Source of the DNA: a candidate division WOR-3 bacterium
GTDB lineage: Bacteria; Hydrothermota; Tepidihabitantia; SM23-42; JAOAFX01
Reading direction: 5' to 3'
Length of the DNA: 64,000 bases
Assembly (NCBI GenBank): GCA_037444665.1
Contig: JBBILZ010000004.1
Location: forward strand, 11,746-75,745
Both the position numbers and the translations under genes were made by a program. Below are positions 17,093 to 62,793 of the stretch, piece by piece (the stretch's first letter is position 1; every line of letters begins with the position of its first letter). The notes beneath the pieces were generated by a model. The model was not told the DNA's origin, searched no databases, and saw only the letters and a program-made list of their open reading frames with translations.

Positions 17093-17163
17093 AAATCACG
17101 CCTCCTTATTAAACCTTTTATAAAAGTTGTAACTCAACAAACCTTTATCCATATCTCCAGCAA

Positions 17164-17772
17164 CTAAAATCTATAGCCGATTCCAGCGCCAAGGTTTAAT
17201 GGATTATGGAAAGCGGGAATCTGGTAGCCTACATAAAAGACAAACCCTGGACCTTGTGCCGGACCAAAATTGATAAAAAAATCATAGGGCGCATAAATAG
17301 ATAAATGAGTTCCGAAGGATAGAATCTTATTTTTGTCGTCCTTGAAGCCAACCATTAGTTCTGTCCTAACAAGCTCAGGTAATGCAGGGCCTATTGTAAA
17401 CGAGAAAACATTACGACTTTTGTTTCTGGTTGCCTCAAATTTATATGCCATATAGAGTGAATAGGCTCTTTTGGGTACTGTACCACTATACTCACCATTT
17501 ATTATGTATATCAGCAATACATTGGTAAGCCCAATATTTTCATTAAATCCGTAATTGAAACCAAAACCGCTACATAAACCGCGTGTATTTGCCATTGAAT
17601 AACTTGATATATTCGAACTATAATCAAAACATCTGAATCCAGCAACAGCACCCACCCAACCTGATGAGCCTTTTTTGACCATTGGCGAATCAAATGTTGG
17701 CGACATGCAACAAGATAGCAAAACAAGCAATATAAATGCTAAATAAATCTTTGGTTTCTTCTCCCTGTGCAT
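17164..17772 (-). CDS. Small lipoprotein/outer-membrane-like protein, paralog 1, intact
   Basis: It has a signal peptide ending LLSCC, an alternating hydrophobic pattern and the C-terminal GIGYRF. It is 70-80% identical to 19549..20161. Confidence 0.45.
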   Translation of the reverse strand: MHREKKPKIYLAFILLVLLSCCMSPTFDSPMVKKGSSGWVGAVAGFRCFDYSSNISSYSMANTRGLCSGFGFNYGFNENIGLTNVLLIYIINGEYSGTVPKRAYSLYMAYKFEATRNKSRNVFSFTIGPALPELVRTELMVGFKDDKNKILSFGTHLSIYAPYDFFINFGPAQGPGFVFYVGYQIPAFHNPLNLGAGIGYRF

Positions 17773-17986
17773 AACAATCCTCCTTGTATGATTATACACT
17801 TCTCAATGGATTCTGTCAATAATTCAAAACCGAGGCTGCGAATAAACTCGGACTCAGTACACCTGAACCACAGCCTGTACCAGGGCAAACTTGCTTTATT
17901 GTCTCCAATCTGATGGATTCTTAAGATGCTGAAATAAATTCAGCATGACAATATCGCTAATCCAAAGTTTTCTGCAACCTTAAATT

Positions 17987-19525: not shown

Positions 19526-19548
19526 TTTTATTCTCCTTTCGCCTGCAG

Positions 19549-20161
19549 CTAAAATCTATAGCCACGCCCAGCGCCAAGGTTTAATGGATTATTGAAATAG
19601 GGAATCTGGTAACCAATATAAAGTACAAATCCCGAACCTTGTGCAGGACTTAGATTGATAAAAAAAATCGTAAGGCGCATACAGAGTTAAATGAGTTCCG
19701 AAGCAGAGAATTTCATTTTTATCCCCTTTGAAGCCAACCATTAGTTCTGCCCTAACAATCTCAGGTAATGCAGGGCCTATTGTTAAAGAGAACACATTAC
19801 GACTTTTGTTTCTGGTTATCTCAAATTTAGGGGCAAGATAGAATGAAGGTTTAAATTCCACTTTAGGTTCTATGCCATCATAATAACCATTCATTCCGTA
19901 TACCAATACTACACCCGTAATCCCGACATTTTCAGTAAATCCATAATTGAAACCAAAACCACTACATGCACCGCGCGTATTTTCAAGGGAATATTCATCT
20001 GGGATGCCATAATCAAAACATCTAAATCCAGCAACAGCACCCACCCAACCTGATGAACCTTTTTTGACCATCGGCGAATCAAATGTTGGTGAAATGCAAG
20101 AGAGAAATACAAGCAATATAATCGCTAAATAAAAAAGTGCGTTAGGAAAAGTTCTGGCCAA
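19549..20161 (-). CDS. Small lipoprotein/OMP-like protein, paralog 2, with the C-terminus frameshifted at a T8 (coding A8) tract
   Basis: It matches paralog 1 up to APYDFF. One extra T relative to copy 1 (T8 versus T7, near 19670-19680) shifts the frame. Correcting it restores ...GYQIPYFNNPLNLGAGRGYRF with a stop at 19549. Confidence 0.5.
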
Positions 20162-32984: not shown

Positions 32985-33755
32985 TTATGCTTTACGCAGA
33001 TATGAATGAATAAATTTGTAAAGATGTGTCGCTCTTCCGATTTCGGTTTCGGCAATAATTTTTCCATCCTTTGCAATAATCAATGTTCCCCCGAAGCTTC
33101 CGCCCGGAATGGGTTCAAAGGCATTTACCAAAAAAGTGGTAACACCGGTCTTAGCTATCTGCCGGGCATAGACAAATTTTTCTTTTCTCTCCCAATCTTT
33201 TTTATTATTGCAACTACCACCAAATGAACGGGACATAGGCACAATTAAGTAATCAAACTTTTCTTTTTTTAGTATTTTTACGACAGAGTTATCAAAGATA
33301 TCACCGCAAATTGCAAACGCCAATTTTCCAAACGGAGTTAAACAGGAAGGCAAATCTTTGCCTTCAACATAGAGGTCTTTGGGCACCCTGCGGCTATGCC
33401 ATTGGGGATTGATTCGGCGATACTTTAAAATAATTTCTCCCATATCACTAAATAATAATGCAGAATCATAGATCTTCTCCTTTTCTTTTTCTAAAATACC
33501 GATTGCAATATAGATGCGATATCTTTTAGCAATTGCTCCAATTCTGCCAGTAAGTTTACCAGGTATTTTTATCGCAAGGGAAATATTTTTTTTGTAATCC
33601 TCTGTGGGTAAACCAGTTAATGCACATTCTGGAAAACAGATTAATTGGCAATGCTTTTTATATGCCATTTTAACCGAATCTTCAACTTGCATTATGTTTT
33701 CTTCTATTCCTGATTGTTTAAACAGAAATGACGATAAAAACACCTTAAAATTCAT
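32985..33755 (-). CDS. Carbon-nitrogen hydrolase (nitrilase superfamily) amidohydrolase
   Basis: It carries the E-K-C triad context (CFPE...AFAICGD). Confidence 0.7.
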   Translation of the reverse strand: MNFKVFLSSFLFKQSGIEENIMQVEDSVKMAYKKHCQLICFPECALTGLPTEDYKKNISLAIKIPGKLTGRIGAIAKRYRIYIAIGILEKEKEKIYDSALLFSDMGEIILKYRRINPQWHSRRVPKDLYVEGKDLPSCLTPFGKLAFAICGDIFDNSVVKILKKEKFDYLIVPMSRSFGGSCNNKKDWERKEKFVYARQIAKTGVTTFLVNAFEPIPGGSFGGTLIIAKDGKIIAETEIGRATHLYKFIHSYLRKA

Positions 33756-35002: not shown

Positions 35003-35093
35003 GGCATTGCCGCCAGTGTGGTTATTAGTCTATTTGTTGTTCGTTATTTTTAGCCATTAAACTATGCCGAAAGACCATACCAGCCGCTATGCC
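35003..35093. repeat. IVS-like inverted-repeat stem-loop element, locus 1 (empty, degenerate)
   Basis: The left arm is ggcattgccgccagtgtggttattag. After a ~45-nt loop, the right arm is accataccagccgctatgcc. It belongs to the same family as 38646 and 46150/46606. Confidence 0.4.
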
Positions 35094-35141
35094 ATATAAC
35101 CAAAAACTTACAACTATCATAGAAAATTACGGCATTTATGA

Positions 35142-38580: not shown

Positions 38581-38645
38581 TATTAACCTCCTTTAGCAGA
38601 AATTATAAAATATTTGGCAAGCCCTGACATCTGTTTTTCGTTTTT

Positions 38646-38739
38646 GGGCATGGCAGCCATTATGGTCTTTAGGCATAATTTTATGCTGAAATAAACTTTT
38701 GACTTAAAACCAAACCGGCGGCTATGCCATATAACCATA
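38646..38739. repeat. IVS-like inverted-repeat stem-loop element, locus 2 (empty, degenerate)
   Basis: The left arm is gggcatggcagccattatggtctttagg. After a ~40-nt loop, the right arm is accaaaccggcggctatgccatat. Confidence 0.4.
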
Positions 38740-38756
38740 AACAATGCCCCAAACCA

Positions 38757-45744: not shown

Positions 45745-46584
45745 TTATTCTTCAGTAAGTTCAATCAATACACCACCTGCGGTCTGGGGATGGATAAAGG
45801 CAATCTTTTTGCCCATTGCACCCTTGCGGGGTTTTTCATCTATCAATTTCACACCAGATTTTTTTAACTCTTCCAGTACCTCTTCAATATTCTCAACTGC
45901 AAAGGCAATGTGGTGCAAGCCCTCTCCCCTTTTTTCAATAAATTTGGCAACCGTGCTCTCTGGATTCAATGGTTCAAGTAATTCAATATGTGTATCACCG
46001 ATTTCCAGCATTGCAACCTTTACTTTTTGCGCAGGAACTTCTTCTATGGTAAGCAGGGTCAATCCTAAAACATCCTGCCAGAACTTGAGACTCTCGGTGA
46101 TGCTCTTTACTGCGATGGCGATATGGGACAAAAAATAGTAAGTAGTATAAGGTTTCTGGGCATAGCGGCCAGTATGGTCATTAGGCGTGGTCTTATGTTT
46201 CCGGTATTTGAAATTATCCCAGGCCTGAGCCAAATTAAACAATTGACGTGCACATATATCATAGACTTTTATTAGTCTCTCACAAGTTTCTACTTCAATA
46301 TGGTAGATATCCTTGATATGTTCTAAACTTACAATAGTTTCGTTGCACTCTGCCATAGCATCATCAAGATATTTTTGAAATCCAGACTTCTGATGCTTTT
46401 TTGCAAAGCCTTCACTTATTAAACGGGGGATCGCCTTTGACGACCTACTTAATTGCTCGTAGAGATCATATTTTTCACTTGCTGGCAACTTCGGTAAGAT
46501 AACTCTTGCAATCTCAATAGATGCCCGATATGCATTTTGAAAAACTTCCAAATCACGGAAACTCCGTATAGGCTTTTTATTCAT
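45745..46584 (-). CDS. In-frame fusion ORF of a four-helix-bundle protein (23S rRNA intervening-sequence protein family) and methylmalonyl-CoA epimerase (VOC fold)
   Basis: The N-terminal ~125 aa ([22 protein letters not shown]...) are four-helix-bundle-like. The C-terminal ~135 aa ([10 protein letters not shown]...[10 protein letters not shown]...GGVLIELTE) are MCE. The linker is encoded by the inverted-repeat arm. Confidence 0.6.
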
Positions 46585-46634
46585 AAGAAATAAACCTATA
46601 ACCTAAAACCATACTGGCAGCTATGCCCAATAAC
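46150..46634 (-). mobile_element. IVS-like element: near-perfect inverted repeats of about 28 bp flanking the four-helix-bundle ORF
   Basis: Arm 46150-46178 (rc gaccatactggccgctatgccca) and arm 46606-46634 (accatactggcagctatgccca) match at 21 of 23 positions. Degenerate empty copies lie at 35003 and 38646. Confidence 0.5.
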
Positions 46635-46643
46635 CATAAACCA

Positions 46644-47939
46644 CTATAACAATTTTCTCTTCTTTGCTTCTTCTTCAAGCCAGGGGCGGAATTTAGGATG
46701 AGCAATATTAATCAATGCTTCTGCACGCTGACGAAGATTTTTCCCATGAAGATAGGCAACCCCATATTCTGTAACAACATAATGAACATCCGCCCGTGTC
46801 GTTACTACACCAGCACCAACTTGAAGTGTTGGGACAATCTTTGAAAGTGTATCATTCTTTGCAGTTGAGGGTAAGGCGATTATTGGTTTTCCGCCTTTTG
46901 CCTGGGCAGCACCACGGATAAAGTCAACTTGACCACCAAATCCAGAATAGATTTTTGTGCCAATTGAGTCTGAACAGACCTGGCCTGTAATATCAACCTC
47001 AATCGCCGAGTTTATTGCTATCATCTTGTCATTGCGTGCGACCACAACAGGATGATTAGTATAGTTGGTAGGATGGGTCTCAAAGATAGGATTATTATCA
47101 ATAAATTCATAAAGCCTTTTAGTGCCAAGATAGAATGTTGCCACAACTTTATAGGGATGGAGTGTCTTTTTTGCACCAGTGATAACTCCTGCCTCAATAG
47201 CCTCCATTATACTATCTGATACCATCTCAGTATGCACACCCAAATCCCTCTTGTCAAACATTGCTTTCAATGCCGCATTTGGTATACCGCCAATTCCCAG
47301 TTGCAAAGTAGAACCATCTTCAACTAAATTGGCAATATATGAACCAATCTTTTTCTCAACTTCAGTGAATGGTATACTTTCAAGTTCAGGTAAATCCGCA
47401 TTAACCTCAACTATCTTATGAACCCTGGAAATATGAATAAACGAATCACCCAGGGTGCGGGGCATCTTCTCGTTCACCTGGGCAATGACAATCTTTGCAG
47501 TCTCAGCCGCTGCCTTTGATGAAAGGCATTCAACACCAAAACTCATAAAACCATGTTCATCTGGTGGTGAAAGATGCAAAAACGCAACATCAATAGGTAA
47601 TAAACCAGAATAGAATAAATCTGGTATTTCATACAAAAATACGGGTATATAATCAGCGCGCCCGTCATTTACTGCCGCACGATCACCCGGACCAACAAAC
47701 AAAGAGTTGTGTCTGAAATGCCCTTCCATACCTGGTTTTGACAATGGGTCATCGCCAAAAAGTAAAACATGTGTCACCTCAACATTCTTCAATTCATCCT
47801 TGCGTGTAGCAAGTGCCTGGGTAAGGGTCATTGGTGTCGCCGCATTCCCGCTTATGTAAATTCGGTCGTTACTCTTTACTACAGATACTGCTTCTTCAAT
47901 TGAACATTTTTTCTTTTTATATTCATCAAACCAGGTCAT
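46644..47939 (-). CDS. Acetyl-CoA hydrolase/transferase family protein (4-hydroxybutyrate or succinyl-CoA:acetate CoA-transferase-like)
   Basis: It has the two-domain CoA-transferase layout, 431 aa. Confidence 0.7.
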   Translation of the reverse strand: MTWFDEYKKKKCSIEEAVSVVKSNDRIYISGNAATPMTLTQALATRKDELKNVEVTHVLLFGDDPLSKPGMEGHFRHNSLFVGPGDRAAVNDGRADYIPVFLYEIPDLFYSGLLPIDVAFLHLSPPDEHGFMSFGVECLSSKAAAETAKIVIAQVNEKMPRTLGDSFIHISRVHKIVEVNADLPELESIPFTEVEKKIGSYIANLVEDGSTLQLGIGGIPNAALKAMFDKRDLGVHTEMVSDSIMEAIEAGVITGAKKTLHPYKVVATFYLGTKRLYEFIDNNPIFETHPTNYTNHPVVVARNDKMIAINSAIEVDITGQVCSDSIGTKIYSGFGGQVDFIRGAAQAKGGKPIIALPSTAKNDTLSKIVPTLQVGAGVVTTRADVHYVVTEYGVAYLHGKNLRQRAEALINIAHPKFRPWLEEEAKKRKLL

Positions 47940-49024
47940 ACTAAATACTCCTTTTTAATATCACCTTTCTCTGCATATAGTCCATTGGCAAAATCGGGCA
48001 TTTCTTTAAGGGCTGATTCAAAACCCAGCTCAGCAATAACACGGAGATATGGAAAGATTCCTGAAGAAATTGCATGTGTTGCAGTGCGCGCAACCAATGT
48101 TGTAGCATTCGGCATACAGAAATGGACAACGCCATCAATTGAATAAATAAATCGTCCGGTCGGCGTGATCTTCGCAGTCTCTATGGAACCACCCTGGTCA
48201 ATATCAAAATCAATAATCACCGAGCCCTTCTTCATTGTCTTTACCATATCTGAGGTAACTAATACGGGCGTCCTTTTGCCAGGCACGAGGACTGCGCCAA
48301 TCACAACATCAGCAAATCTTACGAGTTTCTCAAGATTATGCCTTGTGGAGAACATCGTGGTAATTCTGGTACCTATTGTATGACACATCAGGTTATCAAG
48401 TTTATCCCTTACCACATCAACAATATAGACATTGGCACCAAGCGAGGCAAAACTGATTGCTGCATTTGAACCAAGTGTGCCGCAACCTAAAATCACAACC
48501 TCTGCTGAAGGTATACCTGGTAAACCACCAAGCAAAATTCCCCTACCACCACCAGGTGATTCCAGGAGTCTACCCGCAAGTTGAACTGAAAGTTTCCCTG
48601 CCATCTCACTCATCGGTATTACAATAGATCGGAAGAGCTCTTCGCGCTGGACGATTTCGTATCCCACAAGTGTAATCTTCTTTTCCCTTATTACCTGAAA
48701 AAACTCTTTTGTTGCGGTTACAAGGTGCATAAACCCCATTATTATCTGTCCATCTTTTATTAAAGAGTATTCTTCTTGCTGGGGTCTGCGAACTTTAAGC
48801 ACAATATCAGCACGGCGATATGCCTCTTCTTTTGAATATACTATCTCTGCACCAGCCTTTATATATTCTTCATCAGTAAATCCTGCACCCTCACCCGCAC
48901 CGGTTTCCACATAAACCTTTGCTCCATAAATGAGCAATTCTTTTACCGCCATCGGTGAAAAACCAACTCTATATTCAGGAACTTCTTTGAATGGCGGTAA
49001 TTCTCTTGGTATTCCAAAATTCAT
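47936..49024 (-). CDS. ald: Alanine dehydrogenase / PNT family NAD(P)-binding protein
   Basis: It has the AlaDH/PNT N- and C-terminal domains and a GxGxxG motif (ILGCGTLG). Confidence 0.7.
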   Translation of the reverse strand: MNFGIPRELPPFKEVPEYRVGFSPMAVKELLIYGAKVYVETGAGEGAGFTDEEYIKAGAEIVYSKEEAYRRADIVLKVRRPQQEEYSLIKDGQIIMGFMHLVTATKEFFQVIREKKITLVGYEIVQREELFRSIVIPMSEMAGKLSVQLAGRLLESPGGGRGILLGGLPGIPSAEVVILGCGTLGSNAAISFASLGANVYIVDVVRDKLDNLMCHTIGTRITTMFSTRHNLEKLVRFADVVIGAVLVPGKRTPVLVTSDMVKTMKKGSVIIDFDIDQGGSIETAKITPTGRFIYSIDGVVHFCMPNATTLVARTATHAISSGIFPYLRVIAELGFESALKEMPDFANGLYAEKGDIKKEYLV

Positions 49025-52341: not shown

Positions 52342-52962
52342 TTATTCTATAATAATCAGTTTATCTTTGCTATTTACTGTTTGCCCTTTTTGAACAAAAA
52401 TTTTCTTTATGACACCATCTCTCGGCGCCTTGAACTCATTCTGCATCTTCATTGCCTCAATAATCACCAAACCCTGCCCTTTCTTGACGGCGTCTCCTTC
52501 ACTTACCTCAACTTCAATCACCAAACCTGGCATCGGTGCAGTAATAATTGTCTCTTTTTTATGAACAGCATCTGCACCAGCCTTTAATACCCGGGCAATC
52601 TTTTCATCAACGACTTCAAAAGTATATTTATCACGGTCAACTGCAATCACCAAACCTGGCATCGGTGCAGTAATAATTGTCTCTTTTTTATGAACAGCAT
52701 CTGCACCAGCCTTTAATACCCGGGCAATCTTTTCATCAACGACTTCAAAAGTATATTCATCACGGTCAACTGCAATTTTATTATCCTTGCCAATGTGAAT
52801 CTGATATGGTCTATTATTGATTATCAGGGTCAGTGTTTCTTTATCAATGTCTACTACCTCCACCTGAATATTTTTACCATTCAAGGAAACCACATAACTA
52901 TTCCCTGATTTCTCAATATCGCACTTAAATTCCTTATCATCAATTTTCACAATATACGCCAT
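52342..52962 (-). CDS. Biotin carboxyl carrier protein (biotinyl domain EAMKM) with an internal 43-aa tandem duplication
   Basis: The C-terminus reads ...IEAMKMQNEFKAP. The segment DRD(E/K)YTFEVVDEKIARVLKAGADAVHKKETIITAPMPGLVI(A/E)V occurs twice. Confidence 0.75.
   Translation of the reverse strand: MAYIVKIDDKEFKCDIEKSGNSYVVSLNGKNIQVEVVDIDKETLTLIINNRPYQIHIGKDNKIAVDRDEYTFEVVDEKIARVLKAGADAVHKKETIITAPMPGLVIAVDRDKYTFEVVDEKIARVLKAGADAVHKKETIITAPMPGLVIEVEVSEGDAVKKGQGLVIIEAMKMQNEFKAPRDGVIKKIFVQKGQTVNSKDKLIIIE
52517..52774. repeat. Two copies of a 129-bp in-frame tandem direct repeat inside the BCCP gene
   Basis: The copies are near-identical, with 2-3 mismatches. Confidence 0.7.
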
Positions 52963-53810: not shown

Positions 53811-53858
53811 TTATTTCCTCCTTTTGTTAAAATGAAATCATTATCATACCGGCAGATT

Positions 53859-53930
53859 CTTTTCCAATTCTTATCCCCTTCCTAACCTGCACTACCTCAA
53901 ACATAATTTTATTATATCAACAATCTAAAA
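53859..53930. repeat. About 75-bp direct repeat, family A, copy 1. It is the promoter and leader of the HNH gene. The second copy lies at 59026..59098 upstream of the DNA MTase gene.
   Basis: The shared sequence is cttttccaattcttatccccttcctaacctgcactacctcaaacataattttattatatcaacaa. It is near-identical at both loci. Confidence 0.6.
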
Positions 53931-53936
53931 GAATCA

Positions 53937-55554: not shown

Positions 55555-56181
55555 CTAAATTCTTTGGCATATTTCTATTAACCTTTTAATTTTTTGTTGA
55601 AGATCTTTAAGATCTTTGGTTTTCTTTGGATACCACTCGGCATTGTTGGCACCGGATGGATGTGGTAAATATATCCTATCTATAGAAATACTTTTGTTTT
55701 CTATTATCCACTTCTCGACATCTTTACCCAAACAAATTATAGCTTTTATCTGTTTTTGCATTTTGATAATTTCTTCTTTCAACCATTTATCTGCACATTT
55801 TTTTGTAAATTTATTTTTTTCATCTGTTGGACATTTATGAAAATGCGTCCAATATGTAACTTTAAATATTTTGAACAAATCGTCCGTATCTATCTCTATA
55901 TTTTTTCTTTTACAGAATTTTGTAATTTTTAAAATCAACGAAAAAGGAATTGCAGCAGAAAACAAAATGCGACGCATTTCATCGGGTTTATACCTTGCGG
56001 CATAATTATATATGGAAACAAAGTCAATAGTTGGATCTCTTGAGATTAATAAAATCTTTGTCCTATACCTATAAGGAGGAGGAATTAGAATGATAGGTAA
56101 ATTGTTTTTCTCTTTAAAAGGGCAATCTTCCGGGCATTTCTCTCTTGCTATTCTTATATATTTCTTTTTCTTTATAGTCAT
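55555..56181 (-). CDS. Uracil-DNA glycosylase superfamily-like protein
   Basis: It carries ILLISRDPT (motif-1-like), later ICLGKDVEKW, and LPHPSG (HPS motif-2-like). Spacing between them is compatible with the UDG fold. Confidence 0.4.
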   Translation of the reverse strand: MTIKKKKYIRIAREKCPEDCPFKEKNNLPIILIPPPYRYRTKILLISRDPTIDFVSIYNYAARYKPDEMRRILFSAAIPFSLILKITKFCKRKNIEIDTDDLFKIFKVTYWTHFHKCPTDEKNKFTKKCADKWLKEEIIKMQKQIKAIICLGKDVEKWIIENKSISIDRIYLPHPSGANNAEWYPKKTKDLKDLQQKIKRLIEICQRI

Positions 56182-56339
56182 AATATCATTTTCCTTAACC
56201 AAGTAAAATGTCGCTTAACGTTTTGCGACTATCCAAAGCTCCGCCGAAGGCGGAATTTGGGTAAACACCATACACCACGAACCTTTTATGCTGTGTTATA
56301 TGCCGTTGGTCGCCGTTTGCCATCGGGAAAATTCTCCTA

Positions 56340-57581: not shown

Positions 57582-58913
57582 CTATGGTTTATGACAAATT
57601 ATTACACTTTCTCCCCTTATTGCTCTATTACGAGCACCTAATAGTGGATTAAATATTAATTTTTTAAATTTAAATCCAACTTCCTCACAGAATTTTTTAG
57701 TTGTCATAGTTGTTGGAATTTTCTTACCGTTAACTGTGCTATCTCCAATTATTATTGCTAACTTACCACCGGGTTTTAATGCCCAGAAAATATTTTTTAT
57801 GGATTCCTTTAAATCCTCATAATACATAGCAACTTTGGGCGGTAATCCGCTGTGGTTACTTTTTACCTTTCTATCATTTTTCATCCCCAAATATTTTGAT
57901 TCAATTTTTTTCATATCTGTACCGAGATAATCATAGGCAATTTTATCTTTTCCAACATAATCTATGGAAAAATAATAAGGCGGACTTGTAATACAGGCAT
58001 CAAATTTTTCTTTCATCCCAGTCATATTTTTCAGTTCAAGTATGTCTCCTTCTATAATGTGAGCAGGTTTAAATTCAAGTCCATATTTATCTTTTATCTC
58101 CATTGTCTTTTTATAGCAGTTTTTAATATAATTTAATTTTTCAATAAAAAGCCCCTCCTTACCTTTTCTGTTATATCTTGAAGTCCTTACAAAAGCATCA
58201 ACCGTATCGAAATATACTGCCAACATTAATTTATGTATCACTGAATCAGGATGTTGCCATTTTTTATTTTCTATTGCTTCTAAAATATCTTGTAATTCCT
58301 TCGAGGTAAAACTTAATTTTTTTTCATCAATAAAAAGTAAATCGTTTTTCAACTCAGATAAAACGATTCCCATCGGAGTAACATCTATGCCAACACTTTT
58401 AATTCCCATAAGTGAAGCCTCATGCGTGGCAGTTCCAGAACCATTAAAAGGATCGAGAAGTAGTGAATTATGATTTAATCTAAAAGCATTAATTAAAGTT
58501 CTTACAACTCTTGGATAAAATTTTCCTTTATATGGATAAAGATTATGGAAAGCGTAGGCGTTAGTGTCGCCAAACTTATCCACAAAATCAGTATAAAGTG
58601 TTGTTTTTCCTCTAACTTTTTCAAGATGGGCAACTCGTAACCTTATAAATTCTTCATTACCTTTAAGGTTAACTACTCTATTAACAGGGTCAATTGTATA
58701 TTCATCCGTTAATCCTTGTAACTCCAAATCCAAAAACTCTAAATCTGCCAATGTTTGCATCCAAAAGCCAAATATGGTATCTCCTTTAGGAAGAATATAA
58801 TTTGCAAATTCCTTAGCATAAGCCTCCATTATCTCTTCGTAAGATGGAAATTCGTATGTACCAAACATCGTTGTTTGTTTTGTCTGTTTTTGTGGCAAGA
58901 TTTTTTCAGCCAT
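57582..58913 (-). CDS. DNA methyltransferase (N6-adenine/N4-cytosine amino-MTase; motif I before motif IV)
   Basis: It carries LLLDPFNGSGTATHEA (FxGxG) followed by ...ITSPPYY (SPPY). Confidence 0.7.
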   Translation of the reverse strand: MAEKILPQKQTKQTTMFGTYEFPSYEEIMEAYAKEFANYILPKGDTIFGFWMQTLADLEFLDLELQGLTDEYTIDPVNRVVNLKGNEEFIRLRVAHLEKVRGKTTLYTDFVDKFGDTNAYAFHNLYPYKGKFYPRVVRTLINAFRLNHNSLLLDPFNGSGTATHEASLMGIKSVGIDVTPMGIVLSELKNDLLFIDEKKLSFTSKELQDILEAIENKKWQHPDSVIHKLMLAVYFDTVDAFVRTSRYNRKGKEGLFIEKLNYIKNCYKKTMEIKDKYGLEFKPAHIIEGDILELKNMTGMKEKFDACITSPPYYFSIDYVGKDKIAYDYLGTDMKKIESKYLGMKNDRKVKSNHSGLPPKVAMYYEDLKESIKNIFWALKPGGKLAIIIGDSTVNGKKIPTTMTTKKFCEEVGFKFKKLIFNPLLGARNRAIRGESVIICHKP

Positions 58914-59025
58914 ATTCCTTTATCTCCTTTATATCCGAAGTTGATTACGGATATACATCCTTCTGGCTGAAGTGCCAGATTCTATTCTGTTTTGAATCTC
59001 TTTTATCCATTACCGCTCCCCGAGT

Positions 59026-59098
59026 CTTTTCCAATTCTTATCCCCTTCCTAACCTGCACTACCTCAAACATAATTTTATTATATCAACAAACTAAAAA
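59026..59098. repeat. About 75-bp direct repeat, family A, copy 2 (promoter region of the MTase gene)
   Basis: See 53859..53930. Confidence 0.6.
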
Positions 59099-59133
59099 AA
59101 GTCAAGCATCACAGGGGTAGGGCGTTATGAAAT

Positions 59134-60636
59134 CTATGTCTTTCTCAACATTGATTGCCTTGAGGCAAGTTTCCAGGGGTTCATCCCTGACTGTATCTTG
59201 TCTGATGATTTTGCTACAACCTTTTTTTCCTGCAGAATCTGGCTAATGATTGCTGCGGCTGCGGCAATCTCATAGTTCTCTTTTTTATATTCTATTTTAC
59301 CCAGAATTCTATCAATAAATGTTGTATCATAATCACCCGCAATAAAATTCTGATTATCCATTACCATCTTATGGAATGGGATGGATGTCTTTATACCCCT
59401 TATCACATATTCTTTTAACGCCCGTCTCATTCTTTCAATTGCTTCTTTCCTTGTCGGCGCCCAGACCAGTAACTTGGCAATCAATGGATCGTAGTAAATT
59501 GGCACTTCAAATCCGCGGTATACGCCACTATCCAGTCGCACGCCAATTCCACCAGGTTCAATGAGTTCGGTTATCACACCCATTGAAGGGGCAAAATTAT
59601 TCTCCGGCTCTTCAGCAGTTATACGACATTCAATTGCTGAGCCATTGATCTTAATATCCTCCTGCCTTAATGACAATTTTTCACCTGAAGCAATCTTAAA
59701 CTGCTCTTTGACAATATCAATGCCAGTGATAAGTTCTGTCACTGGATGTTCAACCTGCAACCGGGTATTCATCTCCAGAAAATAAAAATTGCGCTCTTTA
59801 TCAACCATAAATTCAACAGTTCCGGCATTATTATAACCAGACACCTGCACTGCCTTTTTTGCTGCCTCACCCATCCTTTCTCTTAATTCCGGAGTCATAA
59901 TTGCTGAAGGTGATTCTTCAATAAGTTTTTGATGACGTCGCTGGATTGAGCATTCCCTTTCGCCGAGATGAACAACATTACCATAATTATCCGCAAGGAT
60001 CTGAAATTCTATATGCCTGGGCTGGTCAAGAAACTTCTCTATAAAAATCGTGGGATTACCGAATGCGGATTGTGCCTCACCCATTGCCTGTTTTATCGCT
60101 GTTCCCAATTCTTTCTTATCCCTTACGACCCGCATTCCCTTACCACCGCCACCGCCTGCTGCCTTAATCAATACAGGCAGACCAATCTTCTCAATTATCT
60201 TCAGTGCCTCTTCTTCGTTTTTAACTGCACCTTCGCTTCCAGGAATTACTGGCACACCTGCCTTCACCATCGTTCTCTTTGAGGCAATCTTATCACCTAA
60301 TAGATTGATCGCCTTTGAATTTGGACCGATAAAAATAATTCCATTATCTTCGCATGCCTTTGCAAAAAACTCATTCTCTGCGAGAAATCCATAACCAGGA
60401 TGGATTGCCTCTGCCCCGCTCTTTTTTGCAATCTCAATTATCTTTTCTATTTTCAAATAACTCTCTGTGGCAGGTGGAGGTCCGAGATAATATACCTCAT
60501 CGGCATAACGGGTATGAAGAGCAGTTCTGTCCGCATCAGAATAGACCGTGACTGCCTTTATACCCATTTCTTTGCAGGCGCGGATTACCCGCACTGCAAT
60601 TTCACCACGGTTGGCAATTACAATTTTTTTGAACAT
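59134..60636 (-). CDS. accC: Biotin carboxylase (acetyl-/propionyl-CoA carboxylase or pyruvate carboxylase subunit A type)
   Basis: It starts MFKKIVIANRGEIAVRVIRACKEMGIK and carries an ATP-grasp domain plus a biotin carboxylase C-terminal domain. Confidence 0.85.
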   Translation of the reverse strand: MFKKIVIANRGEIAVRVIRACKEMGIKAVTVYSDADRTALHTRYADEVYYLGPPPATESYLKIEKIIEIAKKSGAEAIHPGYGFLAENEFFAKACEDNGIIFIGPNSKAINLLGDKIASKRTMVKAGVPVIPGSEGAVKNEEEALKIIEKIGLPVLIKAAGGGGGKGMRVVRDKKELGTAIKQAMGEAQSAFGNPTIFIEKFLDQPRHIEFQILADNYGNVVHLGERECSIQRRHQKLIEESPSAIMTPELRERMGEAAKKAVQVSGYNNAGTVEFMVDKERNFYFLEMNTRLQVEHPVTELITGIDIVKEQFKIASGEKLSLRQEDIKINGSAIECRITAEEPENNFAPSMGVITELIEPGGIGVRLDSGVYRGFEVPIYYDPLIAKLLVWAPTRKEAIERMRRALKEYVIRGIKTSIPFHKMVMDNQNFIAGDYDTTFIDRILGKIEYKKENYEIAAAAAIISQILQEKKVVAKSSDKIQSGMNPWKLASRQSMLRKT

Positions 60637-61245: not shown

Positions 61246-62793
61246 TTATAGCGGTATATTTCCATGTTTTCTCGGTGGGTTTGTATCACGCTTTGTATCA
61301 ATCATTTCAAATGCTTCAATCACCCTTGGTCTTGTCTCGCATGGTCGGATGATTGCATCAATATAACCCTTTGATGCGGTTACAAAAGGATTGGCAAATT
61401 TATCAGTATACTCATCAATCAATTTCTTTTCCAGTGTCTTTGGGTCTTTTGCCTCTTTAATCTCTTTTCTGTATAGAATCTTTACTGCGCCATCAGGACC
61501 CATCACGGCGATCTCGGCACTGGGCCAGGCAAAATTTATATCTGCCCTGGTATGCTTTGAACTCATAACACAATAAGCACCACCATAAGCCTTTCTTGTT
61601 ATTACCGTCACCCTGGGAACTGTTGCCTCACAGAAGGCATACAGCAATTTTGCCCCATTCTTTATAACACCTCCCCATTCCTGGGCAGTGCCGGGCAAAA
61701 ATCCAGGGACATCAACAAAAGTAAGAATGGGAATGTTGAAACAATCACAAAATCTCACAAATCGCGCACCCTTCATAGCCGAATCACAATCAAGGACGCC
61801 CGCAAGCACAGCTGGCTGATTTGCAACAACACCGATTGACCTACCATTCAATCGGGCAAAACCAACAATCAAATTCTTTGCATAATGTTGATGGACTTCA
61901 AGAAACTCACCATTGTCAACCACCCGTTTTATAATTTCATACATATCATAAGGTTTAATTGGACTGTCCGGAATAATTGTATCAAGTTCCTTGTCCATTC
62001 GGTTGATATCATCTGTGCATTCGATTATAGGCGGGTCTTCAAGATTATTCTGGGGAATATATGAAAGTAATTTTTTTATTAACTCAATGCAATCAACTTC
62101 ATTCTCAACGGCAAAATGGGCAACACCTGACTTTTCATTATGAACCATTGCCCCACCGAGTTGTTCAAATGTCACATCCTCATGGGTTGCTGCCTTTACT
62201 ACATCGGGTCCAGTTAGAAACATATATGAGCCCATTACCATTATGACAAAATCGGTCATTGCTGGAGAATAGACTGCACCGCCAGCGCAGGGACCCATTA
62301 TTGCTGAAATCTGGGGAATGACACCTGAGGAAAGCACATTGCGTAAAAAGACATCTGTATAGCCAGCAAGACTATCTACCCCTTCCTGGATTCTGGCACC
62401 ACCAGAATCCTTAAGTCCGATGATGGGACAACCCATTTTCATTGCCAGGTCCTGCAATTTACAAATCTTTTCTGCATAAGCTTTGGAGAGAGAACCACCA
62501 AAGACTGTAAAATCCTCAGAAAATACACAAACCGCTCTACCATTTATTCTTCCATAACCTGTTACCACACCGTCACCAAGTATCTTTTGTTTATCCATAT
62601 CAAAGTCAGTGCAACGGTGTGTCACAAACATATCTGTTTCGCGAAATGTGCCTTTATCAAGGAGCAAATCTATTCTTTCCCTTGCGGTCAGTCTTCCTTT
62701 GTCGTGCTGAGCCTTTATTCTTGCCTCTCCTCCTCCAAGCAATGCCTGTTTTTCAAGTTCTTCAAGATGCTTCAGCTTGTCTTTAATCTTCAT
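61246..62793 (-). CDS. Propionyl-CoA carboxylase beta chain / methylmalonyl-CoA carboxyltransferase (12S-type)
   Basis: It is 515 aa and starts ...[23 protein letters not shown]... Confidence 0.85.

Follow-up and report, generated by a model that had tools for sequence, protein, structure and literature searches.

The window, by which we mean the whole 64-kb stretch of DNA analysed here, contains a propionate/methylmalonyl-CoA gene cluster. The gene of interest in this cluster encodes a biotin-carrier subunit (52342..52962, minus strand) and is a 206-aa open reading frame (ORF) specifying an 8-stranded BT-like barrel, a linker helix, and a biotinyl domain. Genes for its partner subunits lie upstream on the same strand, i.e., a biotin carboxylase of 500 aa without carrier domain as judged from Pfam and NCBIfam (59134..60636, minus strand) and a carboxyltransferase of PccB/MmdA type with 515 aa (61246..62793, minus strand; PF01039 with E 3e-203) that scores 811 bits on TIGR01117, under the cut-off of 998.8. 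Downstream of the carrier gene follow genes for the large subunit of methylmalonyl-CoA mutase, CstA, alanine dehydrogenase, a CoA transferase, and an epimerase. In relatives, the genes are ordered as carboxyltransferase, biotin carboxylase, carrier, and mutase and are all adjacent, and separate genes for biotin carboxylase and carrier are conserved among those relatives that are assigned to candidate division WOR-3.

The original prediction had called the gene a biotin carboxyl carrier protein, which holds insofar as the product is a biotinyl carrier, though not a canonical AccB. Its only complete biotinyl domain (52348..52545, minus strand; aa 140-205, Pfam PF00364) is the single PF00364 stretch in the 206-aa protein (E 3e-20, 72.3 bits versus a cut-off of 22.1) and carries the biotin-accepting Lys172 (codon 52447-52449) in an EAMKMQNE motif, so that a domain score above the curated cut-off and the AMKM lysine motif are found together in the window protein. 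Residues E169-A170-M171-K172-M173 correspond to invariant columns of the alignment, and EAMKMQNE as a whole is invariant in the family. The canonical AccB model TIGR00531 stayed below threshold (48.6 bits versus a cut-off of 115.2): AccB shares the biotinyl domain with AMKM motif and carries a Pro/Ala-rich linker in its N-terminal region, whereas the N-terminal half of the window protein is a BT-like barrel.

A family profile built from 43 homologues aligned with its positions 5-163 to residues 563-728 of human propionyl-CoA carboxylase alpha (PCCA; E 1.2e-22), which cover the BT segment following its helix as well as the BCCP domain. The single-copy form of the carrier described below was modeled by AlphaFold with a pLDDT of 86.7 as eight beta strands (residues 2-76), a helix (77-89), and the biotinyl domain (95-162), and the best Foldseek matches of this model were alpha chains of PCC and MCC (6ybq, 7ybu, 3n6r, and 9yx0; E 4.5e-12 to ~1e-10) with TM-scores of only ~0.44 because barrel and biotinyl domain are oriented differently. 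The carrier gene corresponds to the C-terminal portion of an apparently split alpha subunit of propionyl-CoA carboxylase, comprising BT-like barrel and biotinyl domain. Its likeness to the BT and BCCP domains of PCC/MCC alpha chains (PDB 7ybu, 3n6r, and 6ybp) lies in the collinear profile, the fold of barrel, linker, and biotinyl domain, and the top structural matches. It differs from them in that the alpha subunit in the window is split into two genes with an insert of ~6 kb between them and in that the 43-residue repeat described below is absent from every solved structure or relative.

The other half of this alpha subunit is the biotin carboxylase, of which residues 2-444 align to PCCA 63-507 and are followed by a 56-aa tail that resembles the 55-residue segment PCCA 508-562 in length, while no sequence alignment covers the tail. 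Taken together, the 500-aa biotin carboxylase and a 163-aa carrier would represent an alpha subunit that has been cut inside the BT domain and is collinear with PCCA 63-728, with the central BT helix and hook presumably supplied by the biotin carboxylase tail.

The insert between the two genes has features of its own. Two copies of a 79-nt direct repeat (53855-53933 and 59022-59100; 96% identical, with a promoter-like TTGACT...TATAAT inside) bracket 5.2 kb between the biotin carboxylase and carrier genes. Besides a 409-aa ORF, this insert carries a DNA methylase gene (57582-58913), a UDG-like ORF (55555-56202), and an ORF of 393 aa that matches ParE weakly. A gap of only 54-524 nt separates the two carboxylase genes in the relatives L003 and L063, and Logan contigs end at the 79-nt repeats. 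Beside the repeat, in the intergenic sequence just after the biotin carboxylase gene (59110-59125), seven differences separate the window from Logan contig L061; this cluster may come from exchange between repeat copies or from strain variation.

The carrier gene itself contains a tandem repeat. Tandem Repeats Finder reported a single array at 52508-52776 (period 129, 2.1 copies, 98% matches, no indels, score 524) and no other tandem repeat with a score of at least 60 in the 64-kb window. In codon register, positions 52519-52776 (minus strand) are composed of two 129-bp copies arranged head-to-tail that abut at 52647/52648 without a spacer; the original prediction had located the same repeat at 52517-52774, i.e., offset by 2 nt. 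Copy A (52648..52776, minus strand) encodes aa 63-105 (IAVDRDEYTFEVVDEKIARVLKAGADAVHKKETIITAPMPGLV) and retains the ancestral G at 52758 (Glu69), and copy B (52519..52647, minus strand; aa 106-148) is the same except for an A at 52629 (Lys112; bases in gene orientation). This is the only mismatch in 129 nt, and the longest exact run shared by the copies is 114 nt. Contrary to the earlier description of an exactly duplicated 43-aa unit with 2-3 nucleotide differences, there is one difference within 2 x 129 nt, an amino acid replacement (E to K) that leaves 42/43 residues identical. Tandem Repeats Finder counted a further mismatch, which sits in the partial third copy, where ATTGAAGTTGA after copy B is compared to ATTGCAGTTGA at the unit start. 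A match of 128/129 nt between the copies cannot be due to chance. Since the unit comprises 43 codons, the ORF at 52342-52962 stays open over 206 aa, and this together with the detected period of 129 bears out the predicted in-frame tandem duplication of 129 bp in a biotin-carrier gene. The 206-aa product was also found in an NCBI-derived protein collection, encoded on an 81,076-bp contig, and the duplication therefore belongs to the deposited record.

The duplicated unit straddles two domains. Residues 63-105 cover strands 7-8 of the barrel, the linker helix, and, from the biotinyl domain, its first strand together with PMPGLV, so that the unit includes the domain start TIITAPMPGLV and the APMPG entry had been placed correctly within it. 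Equally, the expectation of a truncated domain start followed by a complete domain agrees with what we see, with copy A leaving an orphan start ahead of the one complete PF00364 stretch. The repeated part of the biotinyl domain is limited to its first ~12 residues, and the 206-aa protein has neither a second AMKM motif nor a second complete carrier domain. This sets it apart from multi-domain carriers with tandem lipoyl or biotinyl domains, whose second complete domain with a modifiable lysine is not present in the window protein. The 43 extra residues fall between the carboxylase-docking barrel and the swinging carrier domain. For the 206-aa form, AlphaFold returned a pLDDT of 48 with values <50 for residues 58-135, too low a confidence to assign either copy to one of the domains.

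Comparison to relatives shows the 206-aa carrier as an exception. When carrier length was compared across relatives, as had been proposed, the best 119 other homologues listed measured 157-177 aa and mostly 163-164 aa, and 206 - 43 equals 163. No insertion at the carrier gene was found in 59 loci from species-representative genomes, among which the window species itself is not included (best match 64-67%). Linker residues K84, K92, K93, and E94 are almost invariant in the family. At a 90% clustering level, the 206-aa product forms a cluster with one member, and the form is known from one deposited contig only. It had no exact match on any contig in a public-assembly index including the Logan assemblies, and scans of JGI metagenome contigs yielded no match to an exact 23-mer from inside the unit or to a degenerate pattern for the first 16 codons of the gene.

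The most informative comparison comes from contigs of Logan run SRR11582170, for which a literature search returned nothing. Four of them (L001, L061, L064, and L065) are 99.86-100% identical to the window, amounting to ~99.99% over 39 kb, with one contig at 100% over 9,947 bp and another with one mismatch in 15,835 bp; a fifth (L066) encodes exactly the 393-aa protein of the window's island. Given this near-identity, both assemblies sample the same population. The carrier encoded by this run (P0002) equals the window protein minus one copy, and the respective gene on L001 is identical over 492/492 nt to the window gene with copy B taken out, while removal of copy A instead leaves one mismatch. 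The single-copy allele is ancestral. The opposite polarity, with the single-copy form as a deletion derivative, was considered and rejected because all relatives that we found are single-copy.

The endpoints of the duplication lie on a microhomology that the original prediction had left out and that points to the mechanism. An 11-nt motif at the unit start (52766..52776, minus strand; ATTGCAGTTGA) has a counterpart directly after copy B (52508..52518, minus strand; ATTGAAGTTGA), and these two arms match at 10/11 positions, with uninterrupted identity over 4 nt and 6 nt, i.e., they form an imperfect repeat. In single-copy L001, ATTGCAGTTGA and ATTGAAGTTGA are exactly 129 nt apart, and the repeat thus predates the duplication. 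At the novel junction (52637..52647, minus strand), copy A ends in GGTTTGGTG and runs on into ATTGCAGTTGA, so that the sequence reads GGTTTGGTG/ATTGCAGTTGACCGTGATAAATAT with a GGTG/ATTGC transition that is absent from the single-copy allele. The junction carries the upstream version ATTGCAGTTGA and not ATTGAAGTTGA. Matches of at least 10/11 at a spacing of 129 have a background frequency of 4.7e-5 in the window, and within the gene only 5 distinct pairs among 110,685 position pairs match at this level. The pair of 11-nt direct repeats is absent from the nearest relatives, L062 and L063. Endpoints on a direct repeat at a distance of 129 nt are the signature of a microhomology-mediated tandem duplication.

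We therefore lean, with modest confidence, towards a very recent microhomology-mediated tandem duplication that occurred inside cells as an ordinary mutation in an uncultured WOR-3-related bacterium, where one strain or sub-population carries it. Such an event might have begun with a slip during copying of the strand complementary to the coding strand: The nascent end, having just copied the upstream arm, would re-pair with the downstream arm at 10/11 bases, and 129 nt would then be copied a second time. A slip on this strand would leave the upstream arm's C in the junction, where it is indeed found. Tandem duplications of this kind are common in microbes, with ~76,000 strain-variable loci reported in 103 species of which around half show microhomology of >3 bp (bioRxiv 10.64898/2026.02.28.708716), and they have been reported as subclonal, rapidly reverting events (PMC8639346). 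The window resembles these systems in its two abutting, near-identical, in-frame copies with a repeat arm at the junction and in the persistence of a single-copy allele in the same population; it differs in that the microhomology is long yet imperfect and in that the copies are already one base apart (PMC8639346; bioRxiv 10.64898/2026.02.28.708716).

The same junction could also have arisen outside of cells, and we regard a technical artefact as a serious possibility, if not quite a probable one. It might be a chimeric library molecule, formed when the polymerase of a PCR or whole-genome amplification switched template at this 11-nt microhomology, or a product of gap-filling or polishing; the assembler would have crossed the resulting loop once, and the organism would have the 163-aa gene only. 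That the contig contains demonstrable read-derived junk lends weight to this explanation. At 48626-48638 (plus strand), only 3.9 kb from the repeat, the exact 13-nt start of an Illumina adapter (AGATCGGAAGAGC) lies inside the alanine dehydrogenase gene (47936-49024, minus strand), where it replaces 13 nt in register that read TGGCCGTTTACCA (gene orientation) in the near-identical Logan contig. As a consequence, the protein reads REELFRSIV in the window versus (E/D)DG(R/K)LPIV in 14/14 other cluster members, with the motif DG(R/K)LP changed to ELFRS, and the altered protein is present in the deposited record. On sequence grounds, these 13 nt are proven to be an adapter-derived technical error in the deposited contig, which had been overlooked in the original prediction and bears on the assembly artefact that it listed as one option. 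Another near-match to the adapter at 33031-33043 (one mismatch) was judged to be natural since L064 is 100% identical there and the same protein occurs in NCBI and Logan.

An artefact would further explain why the 206-aa form has been seen once only and why an independent assembly of the same population has one copy on an unbroken contig. In assembly from a k=31 graph, contigs would break at the unit boundaries of a fixed duplication. The Logan contig runs unbroken through its single copy, and the junction is therefore rare or absent in SRR11582170. Moreover, the junction and the sole base at which the copies differ are 19 nt apart so that one read could carry both, and the divergence from Logan of ~1.3e-4 per site predicts ~0.02 differences per 129 nt where one was observed. 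This one-base difference is equally compatible with one chimeric molecule that carried an error and with error-prone copying in the course of the event.

Several observations argue against an artefact and for a real event. The junction GGTG/ATTGC would not be producible by a de Bruijn assembler without reads containing it. The breakpoints depend on sequence, and a plain concatenation of contig ends has no reason to pick them and leaves the microhomology unexplained. False duplications at contig joins of draft assemblies share with the window repeat that two near-identical copies are adjacent and that the assembly contains other errors; however, they usually have the length of an assembler overlap and have no reason to hit a microhomology, which the window repeat does against the low background given above. 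To our knowledge, 129 nt (or 114 nt for the longest exact run) equals no common default k-mer size of assemblers, and an assembler k-mer overlap was rejected as the cause for this reason and because the endpoints lie on the microhomology. Template switching in library PCR on just 10/11 nt of homology is rare, and its product needs enough copies to survive assembly. No second repeat of this kind exists in the 64 kb. Finally, a 900-bp region around the repeat holds three differences between the window and L001 (52629, 52240, and 51789), compared to one mismatch in 25.8 kb elsewhere, which suggests that the contig follows a distinct haplotype there and that a real alternative allele was sampled. 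At position 61617, the window encodes Pro and the Logan contig Ser; we take Pro to be the conserved residue at this position in PccB-type sequences, and the window would therefore not simply be the noisier copy. The core reading given at the outset, a very recent in-frame tandem duplication, is supported, and the options named with it (real event, repeat variability, or assembly artefact) have been narrowed.

If the duplication happened inside cells as we favor, the 206-aa product would retain a complete biotinyl domain with its biotin-accepting lysine and gain 43 residues. The effect is expected to be neutral to mildly harmful, and the duplication would be unstable because recombination between the copies would restore the 163-aa form. 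It appears unlikely that the duplication is real, dominant in one natural strain, and compatible with a working 206-aa protein, be it with a swinging-arm tether that is 43 residues longer or, alternatively, with a barrel that uses the second copy of strands 7-8 while the first is looped out.

We consider it highly improbable that the duplication is real and has been selected, either for a longer biotinyl tether or because switching of the repeat adjusts carboxylase activity; such a duplication might be a first step to a multi-copy repeat or multi-domain carrier. In its favor, the repeat is in frame and preserves the complete biotinyl domain and lysine, and duplications of similar type, which have been associated with reversible phenotypes, can expand or revert fast (PMC8639346). 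Yet no other member of this large family has an extension at this site, and the fixed length of the family together with the conservation of the linker makes it unlikely that an insertion of 43 residues would be favored. Further points against selection are the duplication of only 12 residues of the carrier domain without a second AMKM motif, near-identical copies that show no time for selection, and the low pLDDT of the 206-aa model that gives no support for an ordered new element.

A very recent duplication and a technical artefact are both known kinds of events in a known kind of gene, and the importance of our results is mainly practical: The 206-aa gene model is an outlier in a family of otherwise ~163 aa and needs support from reads before it is treated as a new carrier architecture, and the adapter remnant means that the deposited record needs curation. 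If true, the favored duplication would be a textbook case of a microhomology-mediated event that is polymorphic within one uncultured population, and it could constitute a small natural test of the tolerance to tether length with a repeat at the junction of docking barrel and mobile biotinyl domain. If the 206-aa protein were functional in addition, we would see the birth of a tandem repeat caught at its first step in a length-fixed carrier family. The duplication opens no new question.

Beyond the carrier gene, we noted further repeats and a gene fusion in the window. A 52-nt motif occurs three times (35056-35107, 38691-38742, and 46590-46641) at 75-77% identity with a core of GGCTATGCC(A/C)(T/A)ATAACCA(A/T)AAAC, and a related stretch is found at the start of L061 (81% match to 38640-38738); an Rfam scan of the window including this motif gave no match. 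Two stretches of ~550 bp (17154-17710 and 19539-20099) that are 77-95% identical and 2.39 kb apart overlap ORFs at 17164-17799 and 19589-20161, which are probably paralogous genes. At 45745-46584 (minus strand), an N-terminal PF05635 domain (aa 10-115), i.e., a member of the "23S rRNA intervening sequence protein" family, precedes in one protein a glyoxalase domain that resembles methylmalonyl-CoA epimerase (aa 152-276), and the same epimerase fusion was called in L001.
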